Assembly (NCBI GenBank): GCA_900549475.1
Contig: UROF01000025.1
Span: forward strand, 5,153 to 37,152
From: an uncultured Eubacteriales bacterium
Lineage (GTDB): Bacteria > Bacillota > Clostridia > Oscillospirales > Oscillospiraceae
Direction of reading: 5' to 3'
DNA length: 32,000 bases
The position numbers were made by a program, and so were the translations under genes. The notes below the pieces were generated by a model, which had not been told where the DNA came from, searched no databases, and was given only the letters and a program-made list of their open reading frames with translations. Positions 3,584 to 32,000 of the stretch are shown in pieces (position 1 is the first letter of the stretch; every line of letters starts with the position of its first letter).

Positions 3584-3630
3584 TTTTACACATTATCCAC
3601 ACAGTTTTCCACACGCTTATGTTAACCACC
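3584..3630 (+). promoter_or_regulatory. Cluster of head-to-tail DnaA-box-like 9-mers outside oriC
   Basis: The boxes are TTTTACACA (3584-3592, 2 mismatches), TTATCCACA (3593-3601, perfect consensus), TTTTCCACA (3605-3613, 1 mismatch) and TTAACCACC (3622-3630, 2 mismatches). All four share one orientation. Confidence 0.55.
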
Positions 3631-5902: not shown

Positions 5903-6431
5903 GGTGCGCCGTCCCCGGACCCGGTGTTTGCTATTGGGGGCCTTCCCGGCCCCAAACCCCGGGTTCACTTTTGGCCGCCCAAAAGTGAACCGAAAAAGCG
6001 CCAGCCCCCTTCGGGCTGGACCCCCGCTGTTGTCTAATCGGACACCCCCAGCCCTGCCGCTGTGGTGCCACTGAACCAGTGCCTTTTGGCATCTGATCTG
6101 CGGCGGGTTGCGCGTCCAGCTTCGGCTGTCGCCCTGTTAAAGGGGTAGAACCATCTGTCTGTTTCGCATAATCAGAAGCGTCTATCGACTCGAGGGCCGT
6201 CAGGCGAAGTGCGCAGACCGCCGCACCGATTACGAAGGAGCCGGAGGCCCCGCGGTATTTCAGTGGCAACCGGGCATCTCCCTTGCTTGTGTCCGATTGG
6301 ACAAACAGAGGGGGGTCCGGGGTCTCCCCGGCGCGCTTTTGCCTACTTTTCCCGCGAAGGAAAAGTAGGCCTGCGGAGCATACCCAGCCCGGAGGGCTGA
6401 TAAAAGGAGATTCAGAGGAACCATCCTCTGA
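5903..6431. repeat. Foldback multi-hairpin repeat, copy C (full palindromic copy)
   Basis: The left arm has H1 at 5962-5991, H2 (CCAGCCC-ccttc-GGGCTGG) and the core at 6022-6043. The inner arms are GTGCCACTGAAC and TTCAGTGGCAAC. The right arm has the core at 6293-6313 and H1' at 6341-6370 (GCCTACTTTTCC-cgcgaa-GGAAAAGTAGGC). H4 and H5 (6412-6431) follow. Confidence 0.8.
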
Positions 6432-6481
6432 TACCATCCCCCGGCCGGTGGGAACCGGCAAAACAAGAAAGGAGCCCCGCC

Positions 6482-11335: not shown

Positions 11336-11875
11336 TTATTTCCATTCGTGGCTGAGAATCCGCATCATAATAAAATCACTGTATGTATTGTTGTAGTAAT
11401 AGGCCTCTTCCTGAATACCTTCCTGCTTGAATCCGATCTTCTTGTAGAACGCCAGCGCATCGGTATTCAATCCCACTACCCCGATGGAGACACGGTGCAT
11501 GTCATACTGGTGGAAGGCCATATCCAGCATGATGCGAATGGCTTCTGTCCCGTAGCCCTTATGCTGCATCTTTGGATCGGGAATGATGATCGTAAGATCG
11601 GTCTGGTGCCATGCGGGAAACATACGGAGCAGGCCCGTCTCACCTATGATATTGCCGTCCAGATCTGTAATCGTGAACCAAACCGAGTCTTTCGATTTAT
11701 GGTTGACGGTAATGCAAGTTTTCATCTCTTCCTCAATGATAGGCTTCTCAAAACCGCATTGAAACATAACCTTCGGCTGATTGAACCAATAGGTATAAAA
11801 CGGCACATCTTCTTCTCTTTGCTCCCGCAAAATAATCCGTTTCCCTCTGATTTCTTGATCCATATGTTTTCTCAT
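11336..11875 (-). CDS. GNAT-family N-acetyltransferase (RimJ/RimL-like)
   Basis: The acetyl-CoA binding segment is QHKGYGTEAIRIMLDMAF...FYKKIGF. The gene is visibly AT-rich compared with its neighbours. An alternative start lies at 11863. The 312-aa ORF extension overlaps the MocR gene in another frame and is spurious. Confidence 0.85.
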   Translation of the reverse strand: MRKHMDQEIRGKRIILREQREEDVPFYTYWFNQPKVMFQCGFEKPIIEEEMKTCITVNHKSKDSVWFTITDLDGNIIGETGLLRMFPAWHQTDLTIIIPDPKMQHKGYGTEAIRIMLDMAFHQYDMHRVSIGVVGLNTDALAFYKKIGFKQEGIQEEAYYYNNTYSDFIMMRILSHEWK

Positions 11876-14100: not shown

Positions 14101-14733
14101 TGCCGGGGCTGCGGCCCCGGTGCCCGGTTTTTGCGGGGCCTACCCGGCCCAGGCGGCATATCCGAAGTAAGCCGCTTCGGGCTTCGGTTCCCGGGCCTAC
14201 CCGGCCCGGACCCGGGTAACTTTTTGTACGCACAAAAAGTTACCAAAAAGGCGCCGGGGAGACCCCAGACCCCCGTTTTTTCCCAATCGGACACCTGCAA
14301 AGGAGCACTGCGCAGCCACTGAACTACCGAATCCTTCGGGTATCTGATCTCCGCCGGGTATCTCGTCCGGCTTCGGCTGACACCCTTTTGAAGGGGAAGA
14401 TGAATCTTTTTTCTGCCGCGAACTGCCTGCGCCTATGAAAAGCAACCAGGTTTCCGATAAGAAAAACGTGCAAAGTCCCCCATCCCGAGGGGCGACAGCC
14501 GAAGTGGGATACCCACCGCACCGATCACGAGGAGGCCGAAGGCAAAGCGGTATTTCAGCGGCAGCCGGGTATCACCCCTGATCGTGTCCGATTGGGCAAC
14601 AGCGGTGGTCCGGCCCGAAGGGGGCCGGCGCTTTTTCGGTCCACTTTTGTGCGTACAAAAGTGGACCCGCCGGAGGCAAAACAGCGCTGAGGGCCGCTGC
14701 CCGCCCCCTTTGAACCCCCGGGGTGCGGGGTGG
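14101..14733. repeat. Foldback multi-hairpin repeat, copy D (full palindromic copy)
   Basis: The left arm has H1 at 14215-14244 (GGTAACTTTTTGT-acgc-ACAAAAAGTTACC) and the core at 14270-14292. The right arm has the core at 14588-14608 and H1' at 14638-14667 (GGTCCACTTTTGT-gcgt-ACAAAAGTGGACC). The distal right end is the reverse complement of the distal left ends of copies A and E. An internal direct repeat GGGCCTACCCGGCCC lies at 14136-14150 and 14193-14207. Confidence 0.8.
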
Positions 14734-17602: not shown

Positions 17603-18418
17603 AAACTCCCGGGGCGTCCTGCCCCGGAGCCTCAGCCTCGCACCGGCTGGGCGGATGCAGTCAACCGATGCAGGACTGATTCGCCCGTCGCCGGGCGGGC
17701 AGGAACGCAGCGGGGCCGACTTTAGTCCCGGAGCCCGGGGACTTCCGAAGGAGCCAGAAGCGGCCCTCAGCGCTGTTTTGTCTCCGACGGGTCCACTTTT
17801 GTACGCACAAAAGCGGACGGAAAAAGCGCCAGCCCCCTTCGGGCTGGACCCCCGCTTTTGTCCAATCGGTCATTATCAGATTTGAAACTTCCCTGCCGCT
17901 GAAGCAGCGCTTTTTGGCATCTGATCTGTGGCGGGTTGCTCGTCCAGCTTCGGCTGTCGCCCTGTTAAAGAGACAGGCGAATCTGAGTTTTGTGTCTGGC
18001 CATTGCGCCTATCAAAACTGCGCAGGTTCGCGTCAGCAAAAAAGAAACGCCCCTCAGCCCGAGGGCCGACAGGCGAAGCGGGATACCCACCGCACCGATT
18101 ACGAGGGAACCGTAGGCCCCGCGGAAATTCAATGGCAACCGGGTATCCCCCTTGCAGGCGTCCGATTGGACAAAACGGGGTCCGCAAGGTGAATTGGCCG
18201 AAGGCCAAGAGAGGGTGGCCTGGGCCAGGGGAACCCCGGCGGCGTTTTCACCCGCCCACAGGCGGGCGCTTACGAGGCCAACCGCCGCATGGCGGCGGCT
18301 CTTAGGCCGAGTGGGTTACTTTGCCGCCGAGGGCAAAGTAACCCGTGCCGGAGCACGGAATACCCATAAAACATCCCGAAGGGTTAATAAAGAGACTCTC
18401 AGAGGCCCCCTCCCCTGA
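17603..18418. repeat. Foldback multi-hairpin repeat, copy E (largest and most complete copy)
   Basis: The left arm has H1 at 17791-17818, H2 at 17830-17848 and the core at 17850-17871. The long inner arms run roughly 17891-17965 and 18050-18150. The right arm has the core at 18160-18180, an extra hairpin-rich insertion at 18183-18312 and H1' at 18314-18343. H3, H4 and H5 follow, ending at 18418. Confidence 0.8.
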
Positions 18419-18420
18419 TG

Positions 18421-18460
18421 AAAACAACGAAAAGAGCCGTCCCCGTATGGGGACGGCTCT
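18421..18460 (-). terminator. Intrinsic terminator of rpsT
   Basis: On the minus strand the hairpin AGAGCCGTCCCC-atac-GGGGACGGCTCT is followed by TTTCGTTGTTTT. Confidence 0.85.
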
Positions 18461-18479
18461 CTTGGTTTGCTTGTCAAAA

Positions 18480-22051: not shown

Positions 22052-22103
22052 CAATTTACGAAGGTTCTCTTTCTTTTCTTGAAAGAAAAGAAACAAAAGA
22101 ACT

Positions 22104-22288
22104 TTAGGGGCAAACTCCGTTTGCCCTGGAAAGTAACCAGAGAAGCACCCTTGGGGGAGCTCGAGGGGGCGGAGCCCGCCTCGAATCAAATCGAATGCCC
22201 CGCGTCAGCGGCCTGCGCAGCAGGGGTTTTCCCGCCCCGGCGGGAAAATACGGCATTCTTAGGCAAACTCCGTTTGCCCTGGAAAGGT
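22104..22288 (+). repeat. Pair of 25-nt direct repeats, each a small hairpin, within a degenerate relative of the foldback family
   Basis: GGCAAACTCCGTTTGCCCTGGAAAG occurs at 22109-22133 and 22262-22286, with the stem GGCAAAC pairing with GTTTGCC. Nearby, TTTTCCCGCC-ccg-GCGGGAAAA and GAAATATCCCTGTCAAACAGGGCCTGAAAC resemble modules H1 and H4 of the main family. Confidence 0.5.
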
Positions 22289-22384
22289 CAAAAATCCACT
22301 TTCCACAGGGGACGGGTCAAATGGGGAAAAGTCGGAGGATAACCCACTCTTTTTGGGAAATATCCCTGTCAAACAGGGCCTGAA

Positions 22385-22425
22385 ACAAAAAATCACGCCG
22401 GATCTTTCCACAGATCCGGCGTGAT
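22385..22425 (-). terminator. Intrinsic terminator of the PadR-operon membrane protein gene
   Basis: A 14-bp stem ATCACGCCGGATCT pairs with AGATCCGGCGTGAT. On the minus strand it is followed by TTTTTT. Confidence 0.85.
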
Positions 22426-29100: not shown

Positions 29101-29394
29101 AACCCTCACCTGGAGTTATCAACATTTTCCCCTAAATTTTCCACCGATTCCACAAAAAGTTTTCCACAGGGCCTGTGGACAATCCATCCATCCCCGGCAC
29201 CTGTGGAAACCGGTGGACAAGCATCCCCATTTTCCACACCCCCGTGTGGAGCCGCAATCCCTTGTCCTTCAACAGCTTTCGCAGCTTATCCACAAATTTT
29301 TTCTCTACTGCCCCTACTACTGAAAAATATAACAGTTTATGCTTCTGTACGGCACATTATTCCTTCTGCCGGCAGAAAGAAAGGAATACAGCCC
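29101..29394. other. oriC: DnaA-box cluster plus AT-rich unwinding region in the dnaA-dnaN spacer
   Basis: The boxes are TTATCAACA (29116-29124), TTTTCCACC (29137-29145), TTTTCCACA (29160-29168) and TGTGGACAA (29174-29182). Further boxes are TGTGGAAAC (29202-29210), GGTGGACAA (29212-29220), TTTTCCACA (29230-29238) and the perfect TTATCCACA (29286-29294). An AT-rich stretch with repeated CTACT(G) follows at 29295-29340. Confidence 0.8.
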
Positions 29395-31849: not shown

Positions 31850-32000
31850 CAGCGGGCGGGGGCTGTGTGTCCCCAAGCCCCGGGATTTTCTGAAGGGGCC
31901 AGCAGTGGCCCTCGACGCTGTTATGCCTCCGGCGGCCCCATTTTTGGACGCCCAAAAATGGGGGAAAAAACCGCTGGGGAGACCCCAGACCCCCATATTT
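31850..32000. repeat. Foldback-repeat family, copy F (left arm only, cut by the window end)
   Basis: GGCCCTCGACGCTGTTATGCCTCCGGCGG is followed by H1 at 31936-31963 (CCCCATTTTTGG-acgc-CCAAAAATGGGG). H2 lies at 31974-31988 (CTGGGG-aga-CCCCAG) and is followed by ACCCCC. It is nearly identical to the left arm of copy D. Confidence 0.7.

Follow-up and report, generated by a model that had tools for sequence, protein, structure and literature searches.

A 32,000-nt stretch from an uncultured Eubacteriales bacterium of the Oscillospiraceae (contig UROF01000025.1, positions 5,153 to 37,152; hereafter the window) carries a large imperfect foldback, copy E (17603-18418, + strand), between the stop codon of xth (17600) and the terminator of rpsT (18432-18464), and the question raised by this locus is what kind of element E represents. 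A first description made from the letters of the window (the sequence-only reading) had placed E in an unnamed family of stacked-hairpin repeats and had offered three explanations, namely super-sized REPIN-like mobile foldbacks, a structured RNA family, or cruciform-forming signals concentrated around the origin. In the analysis presented here the mobile foldback was the best supported of these, the structured RNA was poorly supported, and neither REPIN-like membership nor origin cruciforms held up. We consider it somewhat better than an even chance (probability about 0.55) that E, which carries no cargo, belongs to a lineage-specific family of transposon-like, non-autonomous DNA elements. The best-supported description of that family combines forms like mobile insertion cassettes (MICs), which carry regulator cassettes, with cargo-less foldbacks such as E which are like MITEs (miniature inverted-repeat transposable elements), and its behavior is that of MITEs, MICs and the mosaics known as REP (repetitive extragenic palindromic), BIME (bacterial interspersed mosaic element) and BOX repeats.

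Arms, hairpins and modules of the foldback

Copies in the window were recovered by repeat scans and alignment and then by profile searches with an nhmmer profile built from copies C, D and E. All six copies listed earlier were recovered, A (83-512), B (1079-1348, its start now set at 1079), C (5903-6431), D (14101-14733), E (17603-18418) and F (31850-32000), with E-values of 1e-30 to 1e-127; E itself matched on the + strand with 421 bits. Their summed length is 2829 nt (8.8% of the window, previously given as about 9%), every copy is intergenic, and six of approximately nine intergenic gaps longer than 250 nt are occupied, in agreement with the claim that the family fills the long gaps. The genes of the window (parC/parE-like, metG, tatD, spoVAC, xth, rpsT, gpr, spoIIP, jag, yidC, rnpA, dnaA, dnaN and recF) indicate that the host is a spore-forming member of the Clostridia, with 60% G+C. 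In a sample of 644 kb of related DNA, whose strain and species stretches are labelled with L-numbers, the profile gave 124 matches and 68 full cores.

The foldback is real. Folding gave z = -8.7 for C as RNA and z = -6.0 for E as DNA, and 96% of cells are paired in the consensus long-range helices. The order of motifs quoted for the left side also reads exactly as given (outer extension, H1, GAAAAAGCG, H2, ACCCCCGCTTTTGTCCAATCGG, GCCACTGA, CATCTGATCT.., CTTCGGCTG). The right arm, however, is not the plain reverse complement of the left as had been proposed. Two arm types, L and R, lie in inverted orientation and measure approximately 165 nt each, or up to approximately 300 nt with accessory modules. 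They are diverged inverted copies of each other, and an alignment of 23 cores together with arm-level profiles indicated that each type is conserved in all copies and species, the distinguishing sequence being ..ATCTGATCT.. in L and ..ACCGATTACGAGG.. in R. Every core therefore has a polarity (in one example, 246 bits on one strand versus 89 on the other). Core length is 330-450 nt and the whole repeated unit spans 330-800 nt. With the arm-level profiles, L(+) and R(-) were found adjacent in almost all copies, and arms were also seen paired as L-L or R-R and on either side of genes. In most copies, E included, a mere 20-130 nt of apex separates the L-type from the R-type arm, and this apex, which had been thought specific to each copy, is assembled from optional modules common to several copies and species. 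The same orientation is found in all six copies within the window and immediately past it, despite a cluster of DnaA boxes (29116-29294) between E and F.

Each arm contains four near-invariant sequence boxes and hairpins H1 and H2 with compensatory stem changes, to which optional hairpin modules are added. The L arm reads GAAAAAGCGCC, H2, ACCCCCGCTTTTGTCCAATCGG, a variable segment, GCCACTGAA, a second variable segment, GGCATCTGATCT, four variable bases, CGGGT and CTTCGGCTGAC-GCCCTGTTAAAGGG, and the R arm on the same strand reads CCCGAGGGCCGTCAGGCGAAG, CCCACCGCACCGATTACGAGG, a small GGCC hairpin, TTCAGTGGC, GTCCGATTGGACAAA, H2' and a T-run. The arm boxes include TGTCCAATCGGACA, GCCACTGAA, ATCTGATCT and ACCGATTACGAGG, and one box is an operator-like 5-4-5 palindrome, TGTCC AATC GGACA. 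H1 and H1' lie outside the core and are palindromes of 28-32 nt with an ACTTTT..AAAAGT core (H1: six matches versus 0.33 expected), the stems again differing by compensatory changes. For H2 the covariation counts were CG 42/TA 10 and GC 30/AT 24. With their T-runs, H2 on the minus strand and H2' on the plus strand form intrinsic-terminator-like sites, one facing outward on each side (25 versus 5.4 expected and 22 versus 6.5 expected), while no promoter-like site was found in or before the elements.

Around the core are placed an outer extension (module X), a two-hairpin module of approximately 65 nt, an apex module of approximately 45 nt and a three-hairpin tail, and in E each can be located on the + strand. 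Module X (..GGAGCCAGAAGCGGCCC TCAGCGCTGTTTTGTCTCCGACGG) was identified by sequence reading and alignment at 17745-17790; it is also present in A and F, is inverted at the right of D, and in L182 appears inserted between the outer inverted repeat and H1. Hairpin H1 (GTCCACTTTTGT-ACGC-ACAAAAGCGGAC, 17791-17818) has a stem that differs between copies in a compensatory manner. The L-type arm (17820-17985; core alignment and arm profiles) carries the boxes TTGTCCAATCGG, GCCGCTGAA, GGCATCTGATCTGTGGCGGGT and CAGCTTCGGCTGTCGCCCTGTTAAAG, and H2 (17829-17847), followed on the minus strand by CGCTTTTTC, provides the outward terminator-like site detected by terminator scan and covariation. The apex (17986-18044) contains the optional module of approximately 45 nt (..TTGCGCCTATCAAAAC..CAGGTT.., alignment columns 238-285), which is common to D and to copies in other species. 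Alignment and arm profiles placed the inverted R-type arm at 18045-18248 (CCCGAGGGCCGACAGGCGAAG, CCCACCGCACCGATTACGAGG, TTCAATGGC, GTCCGATTGGACAAA), with a 42-nt insert specific to E (18181-18222) and a degenerate H2' followed by GGCGTTTT. Strain alignments delimited the optional two-hairpin module, 64-65 nt in length (CACCCGCCCACAGGCGGGCG..CCGCCGCATGGCGGCGG.., 18249-18312), whose presence at loci C and F varies by strain. Hairpin H1' (GGGTTACTTTGCCGCCGAGGGCAAAGTAACCC, 18313-18344; repeat scan) precedes a tail (18345-18418) of three small hairpins with a TCAGAGG..CCTCTGA-like ending, which is common to B, C and F.

A module of approximately 50 nt (..TCATTTGAAT..GGGCGG..GGCCTACGGGC) was also observed inside loops, at the apex of some cores and in an H1 hairpin (L120/L121 about 900-950, L103, and L112 1286-1338). 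It looks like a still smaller insertion unit landing in hairpin loops.

Cargo genes, occupied sites and turnover

Wherever a pair of arms in the 644 kb lies 0.5-0.7 kb apart, the arms enclose HTH_3, ribbon-helix-helix (RHH) or DUF6809-like genes. There are eight distinct arm-cargo-arm units of this kind, that is, transposon-type ends bracketing passenger genes with no transposase, as in a MIC. The cargo consists of small DNA-binding-protein genes, an XRE helix-turn-helix (HTH) gene with a DUF6809-like or RHH partner. Among the arrangements, the L141 type has a pair of XRE HTH genes between L and inverted L; in L112 the L and R arms enclose RHH-like and HTH genes; in L160 and L007 DUF6809-like and HTH genes are found from R to L; L007 also has HTH and RHH genes enclosed by two R arms; and in L095 the cargo is an Arc-like gene. 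When cargo proteins were compared with NCBIfam only generic XRE matches were obtained, all below the cut-offs, and the AlphaFold model of the DUF6809-like cargo protein was a four-helix structure of low confidence (pLDDT 59.6).

The window itself contains one such cassette (519-1070), made up of an XRE HTH gene on the minus strand (519-719) and a DUF6809-like gene on the plus strand (816-1070), with the arms of A on one side and the single R arm of B on the other. Two strong sigma-70-like promoters lie face to face between these genes (734-794; TTGACA-17-TATACT and TTGAGA-17-TATGAT, both with an extended -10 TG), and both overlap two copies of a 12-bp palindrome, GCACAATTGTGC. From its sequence, this arrangement would be consistent with a cI/Cro-like or toxin-antitoxin-like switch. 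Two further loci were reached via homologues of the DUF6809-like protein. In L182 the same cassette lies between parC and parE, as it does in the window, flanked by inverted R arms which are 90% identical over 143 nt, whereas in L186 the cassette has an R and an L arm and lies between mutS and a miaB-like gene, so arms and cargo occur together in two genomic contexts. The orthologous cassettes in L182 and L186 have palindromes different from that of the window (the L182 operator is AGACAAnTTGTCT), and the operators of the window and of L182 do not match the arm boxes. A separate AT-rich segment of approximately 530 bp, with a 77-amino-acid HTH gene and no foldback arms, was observed between the SHOCT-domain and RNase H genes; it is present in most strains (L127 17540-18138) and absent in L132 (17545-17610).

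Filled and empty orthologous sites, as expected of a MITE, were found at two places. The metG-tatD spacing is 3 nt in L182, a sister species, versus 630-861 nt in the species of the window, where the left junction retains a relic GAGATG and a new AAGGAG lies ahead of the tatD start codon. At gpr-HAD the window has a gap of 50 nt, versus approximately 1040 nt, with arms and cargo, in L112. No common target motif was seen at these two sites. The recF-remA site is also occupied in a second species (L095).

Within the species, copies stay in place and change rapidly. Among strains with identical TatD or RecF the flanks (1.2 kb) differ by 1-2%, while the element differs by 5-26% with indels of up to approximately 270 alignment columns. 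The differences come in blocks, as in the metG-tatD spacer of copy C, which is a block mosaic among strains with identical TatD. When divergent 60-nt blocks were tested, most matched another locus at approximately 90% or better, some of them from an inverted arm, which points to ectopic gene conversion between copies. In copy A of L118, 252 bp are missing between 9-bp direct repeats (CAGCGGCCC).

In L124 (1713-2099) and L125 (1942-2564), which have identical TatD, other genes are found upstream of tatD, mgtE in L124 and small unknown genes in L125, and in L125 the foldback core is inverted. The breakpoints lie inside the repeat, and these changes indicate that the repeats also seed chromosomal rearrangements. 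It was further observed that the last tail hairpin, followed by CAAAA..AAGGAG, immediately precedes the start codons of both tatD and remA in almost the same form (window 6441-6481; L131 about 11760-11801), and these downstream genes seem to owe their ribosome-binding site to the repeat.

These results suggest a route by which the family may have formed. The conserved boxes are predicted to be bound by a recombinase or transposase provided in trans, and insertion into intergenic DNA would have taken place on the time scale of species divergence. Once copies were numerous, arms and cassettes could have spread further by homologous recombination or gene conversion between them, and the present copies would be maintained and scrambled by such inter-copy recombination. 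For the host, the element would act as a bidirectional transcription insulator, and its tail could give the next gene a ribosome-binding site, as at tatD and remA.

The other copies in the window, all on the + strand, differ in completeness. In copy A (83-512), X, H1, H2 and a shortened L arm (175-258) are linked to a complete R arm (299-459), and H2' is at 436-450 and H1' at 461-488. Copy B (1079-1348) begins 9 nt past the stop codon of the DUF6809-like gene and has only an R arm (1081-1242) with H2', H1' (1243-1273) and the tail. Copy C (5903-6431), between metG and tatD, has its L arm at 5992-6157 and R arm at 6176-6340; copy D (14101-14733) has its L arm at 14246-14408, R arm at 14471-14636 and an inverted X module at 14669-14710. 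Strong terminators of the upstream genes precede both C and D. Only the left part of copy F (31850-32000) is present, cut by the window end; a complete copy is found in L131 (11243-11633), and in L127-L134 it sits between recF and remA.

Known systems and rival explanations

No named family was found for these repeats, as the first description had supposed. At the gathering threshold Rfam 15 gave no match in the whole window, and E searched in E-value mode gave chance-level matches only (E >= 2), and on these results a known RNA family was rejected. No tRNA or tmRNA gene was detected. Neither blastn against plasmid and phage records nor IMG/VR returned a match, and on these results a phage or plasmid origin was rejected; nothing on the foldback family was found in the literature searched. 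A 20-mer motif scan of species-representative genomes placed true relatives in three uncultured Oscillospiraceae metagenome-assembled genomes among the matches listed, the remainder being chance matches; the scan gave at least 100 chance matches in GC-rich genomes and the taxonomic range is thus a lower bound. A cleaner motif gave 47 metagenome stretches, many labelled human gut, and protein look-ups added two further lineages. Among the matches listed, relatives are confined to human-gut Oscillospiraceae.

The closest comparisons are with bacterial MITEs (Correia/NEMIS of Neisseria, ERIC/IRU of enterobacteria, RUP of pneumococcus and bcr1 of Bacillus cereus) and with MICs. Like MITEs, the family is non-coding, intergenic and multi-copy, has terminal inverted repeats (the L and R arms are inverted in all full copies) and a whole-element foldback, is small with neither a transposase nor a conserved open reading frame (ORF), shows filled and empty sites between related genomes, and would affect transcript ends. 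It differs in having arms of 165-300 nt rather than about 15-40 nt, with several hairpins and four boxes, in having L and R arms that are distinct and conserved as such, and in being old (copies approximately 73% identical) yet with invariant boxes; no target-site duplication or parent insertion sequence (IS) was identified. MICs such as MIC231 of B. cereus likewise have transposon-type inverted ends around passenger genes with no transposase, and cargo-less ends as well. The ends of MICs, however, belong to a known IS (IS231), whereas this family has no known IS, and its cargo is always a small DNA-binding protein pair with its own divergent promoters. Every MITE and MIC feature tested was present, apart from a parent IS and a target-site duplication of defined length. 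Like REP/BIME, REPIN-RAYT, BOX of Streptococcus pneumoniae and RIME of rhizobia, the elements are modular palindromic mosaics in intergenic DNA with alternating orientation and compensatory hairpin stems; such mosaics vary by strain and their hairpins act on transcription ends. This family differs in being much larger, in its conserved asymmetric core, in its possible gene cargo and in the lack of a RAYT (REP-associated tyrosine transposase) in our searches. The features that define REP/REPIN, PATE (palindrome-associated transposable element), Rfam and attC elements were not found. Overall, the elements look like an oversized variety of the bacterial miniature transposon-like repeats and not like a new kind of biology.

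Several results weigh against a transposon-like origin. No transposase was present among the 29 ORFs scanned in the window, as had been stated (no reading frame is conserved between copies either), and no transposase or recombinase was found in the 644 kb. Nor did the 644 kb show an autonomous relative with such arms, or an arm pair enclosing more than approximately 0.7 kb of cargo, and no parent IS was found in the window, the 644 kb, plasmids, phages or IMG/VR. The only possible target-site duplication is a 3-bp ATG at metG-tatD; none is visible at gpr-HAD, and the ends are blurred by accessory modules. Among 54 non-redundant copies the paralogs are a median of 73% identical (67-80%) and no pair exceeds 93%, so there is no sign of a recent burst of transposition or copying. 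Conservation is heterogeneous between sites, with invariant boxes and variable linkers, which implies ongoing selection, and a host or RNA function could also yield this pattern. Finally, four pairs are conserved as G-U on the + strand (including 111/351 in 20/23 copies and 135/329 in 16/23), and in co-directional gaps the element is in the sense orientation 24 times versus 3 antisense (4 with copy A hand-corrected), or 13 versus 4 when non-redundant (p = 0.049). The G-U pairs and the sense bias fit an RNA-level role.

The explanation drawn from these last findings is that the copies are a structured RNA family of approximately 350-450 nt, transcribed in the sense direction by read-through or as the leader of the downstream gene and ending at the H2' terminator, the long foldback with its conserved internal loops serving as a functional RNA or as a cis-acting signal for processing, stability or attenuation. 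Of the alternatives this one survives best, and we regard it as unlikely. In addition to the G-U pairs, the sense bias and the site-to-site heterogeneity, it is favored by the terminator-like H2' at the 3' end, by adjacent elements being mostly co-oriented (13 versus 4 pairs, including across the DnaA-box cluster), and by the same optional modules occupying the same structural positions across species, like expansion segments. It also recalls the large ornate RNAs (OLE, GOLLD, ROOL, HEARO/omega RNA), which are 350-800 nt, highly structured and restricted to certain Firmicutes lineages. Unlike those, the family has no Rfam match, has many copies per genome, is palindromic on both strands, has helices that do not covary, and has arms that separate to flank genes. 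An unbiased scan of the 54 non-redundant copies (approximately 73% identity) gave clear covariation only in H2 and H2', with double changes concentrated in H2' (helix 10) and few in helix 2; in the long-range helices both sides are conserved with almost no compensatory change. The minus strand folds as well as the plus, which was more stable in 13 of 23 copies (mean difference -2.3 kcal/mol), and at variable pairs U-G cells (34) and C-A cells (31) were about equal, so that neither folding energy nor G-U versus A-C counts gave a consistent strand preference. Compensatory changes throughout the helices and a single folding strand, as expected of a structured RNA, were thus not found. The missing promoter-like sites, the strong upstream terminators ahead of C and D, and the L-L, R-R and gene-flanking arms, which an RNA fold could not tolerate, argue in the same direction. 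Boxes conserved in inverted orientation together with small covarying hairpins are instead the pattern of protein-binding DNA with hairpins that must fold.

A second possibility, which we hold to be doubtful, is that the copies are REP/REPIN-type elements or PATE-type elements of the IS200/IS605 kind, whose movement as single-stranded DNA would depend on an HUH Y1 enzyme (RAYT or TnpA) reading H1/H2 and encoded elsewhere. The covarying H1 palindrome, the lack of a convincing target-site duplication, the tendency of copies to share orientation over 5-30 kb, the small modules inserted inside hairpin loops and the proximity of copies to terminator hairpins are all consistent with it. The elements are, however, 5-10 times the size of a REPIN, and of their parts H1 alone fits the size of a REP (20-40 nt; REPIN approximately 100 nt), while boxes outside the hairpins are conserved. 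REPs carry a conserved 5' GTAG; H1 does not. Long true terminal inverted repeats with conserved boxes are absent from PATEs and REPINs, a PATE having subterminal hairpins, no terminal inverted repeats and insertion 3' of a fixed tetra- or pentanucleotide. Orientation does not flip across the probable oriC, and tblastn with three Y1 probes gave nothing credible in the 644 kb, the best match being a HAD-like protein. The attC sites and cassettes of integrons are also imperfect palindromes with small promoter-containing or promoterless cassettes, and some of their hairpins are conserved in structure and not in sequence. In this family, by contrast, a cassette lies between two inverted arms and not before one trailing attC, the elements are scattered among housekeeping genes, there is no array, and no integrase was found among the ORFs scanned in the window.

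Equally doubtful is a more novel variant, in which the arms form an undescribed cassette-mobility system, with hairpin-rich ends (L/R) of approximately 200 nt moving or exchanging XRE and DUF6809/RHH cassettes between intergenic sites by a new recombinase or by an enzyme-free, recombination-driven 'cassette exchange', or in which the cargo-less foldbacks are new sense-transcribed structured RNAs of approximately 400 nt derived from such ends.

Least probable of these, in our estimate, are host-maintained DNA platforms that would bind a protein (the XRE-type product of a cassette or a nucleoid protein) and would be spread and homogenized by homologous recombination only, the arms acting as portable homology that lets regulator cassettes swap loci. 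Pervasive gene conversion between paralogs, boxes invariant in old copies, the operator-like box, cargo that always encodes a DNA-binding protein, and the rearrangements and inverted core at elements in L124 and L125 speak for this view; but recombination alone cannot fill a site with no prior homology such as the 3-nt metG-tatD junction, the cassette operators differ from the arm boxes, and binding of a protein to the arms is a prediction.

Other candidates were rejected outright. An origin-linked signal does not fit, because DnaA boxes do cluster at 29116-29294 yet the elements sit in many unrelated contexts, relatives adjoining mutS, gpr, dut, remA and other genes. The cluster consists of five DnaA-box-like sites (TTATCCACA, at most one mismatch) between dnaA and dnaN and marks the probable oriC; two more sites, one of them perfect, lie at 3593-3613 in the divergent parE-metG promoter gap, and the window as a whole has 24 versus 3.4 expected. 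To the left of this probable origin (window 1-27000) about half of the genes are head-on to replication, and GC skew is negative through the whole window with no turn at dnaA, which is unusual for a Firmicute; these features may reflect repeat-seeded inversions. A coding region was also rejected: stop-free stretches are long (median 103 codons), but strand and frame differ by copy and indels are mostly not in multiples of three. Public gene calls nevertheless place 'proteins' of 170 and 66 residues inside foldbacks (L129 11235-11747; L186 1451-1651), since G+C-rich palindromes hold long stop-free stretches. The supposed degenerate relative at 22100-22385 had no arm-profile match and is a different repeat, a 153-bp unit between perfect 25-nt direct repeats (GGCAAACTCCGTTTGCCCTGGAAAG; 22109-22133 and 22262-22286) in the gap from spoIIP to the next gene. 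This unit is unrelated to the foldback family, and its copy number differs (0, 1 or about 1.7) between strains whose RecF is identical.

Meaning for the gut Oscillospiraceae

A repeat family undescribed so far accounts for approximately 9% of a housekeeping region in gut Oscillospiraceae, which are abundant but little characterized. The family splits operons such as metG-tatD and puts terminator-like hairpins and new ribosome-binding sites between core genes. Because their sequences change five to fifteen times faster than the flanking DNA, the elements give rise to regulatory variation between strains and to rearrangement of the chromosome. Short-read assemblies will break at them, and spurious gene calls will arise, as at the two loci described above. 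The link between arms and cassettes provides a handle on how the elements arise and move, and may point to a novel mobilizing enzyme or recombination route.

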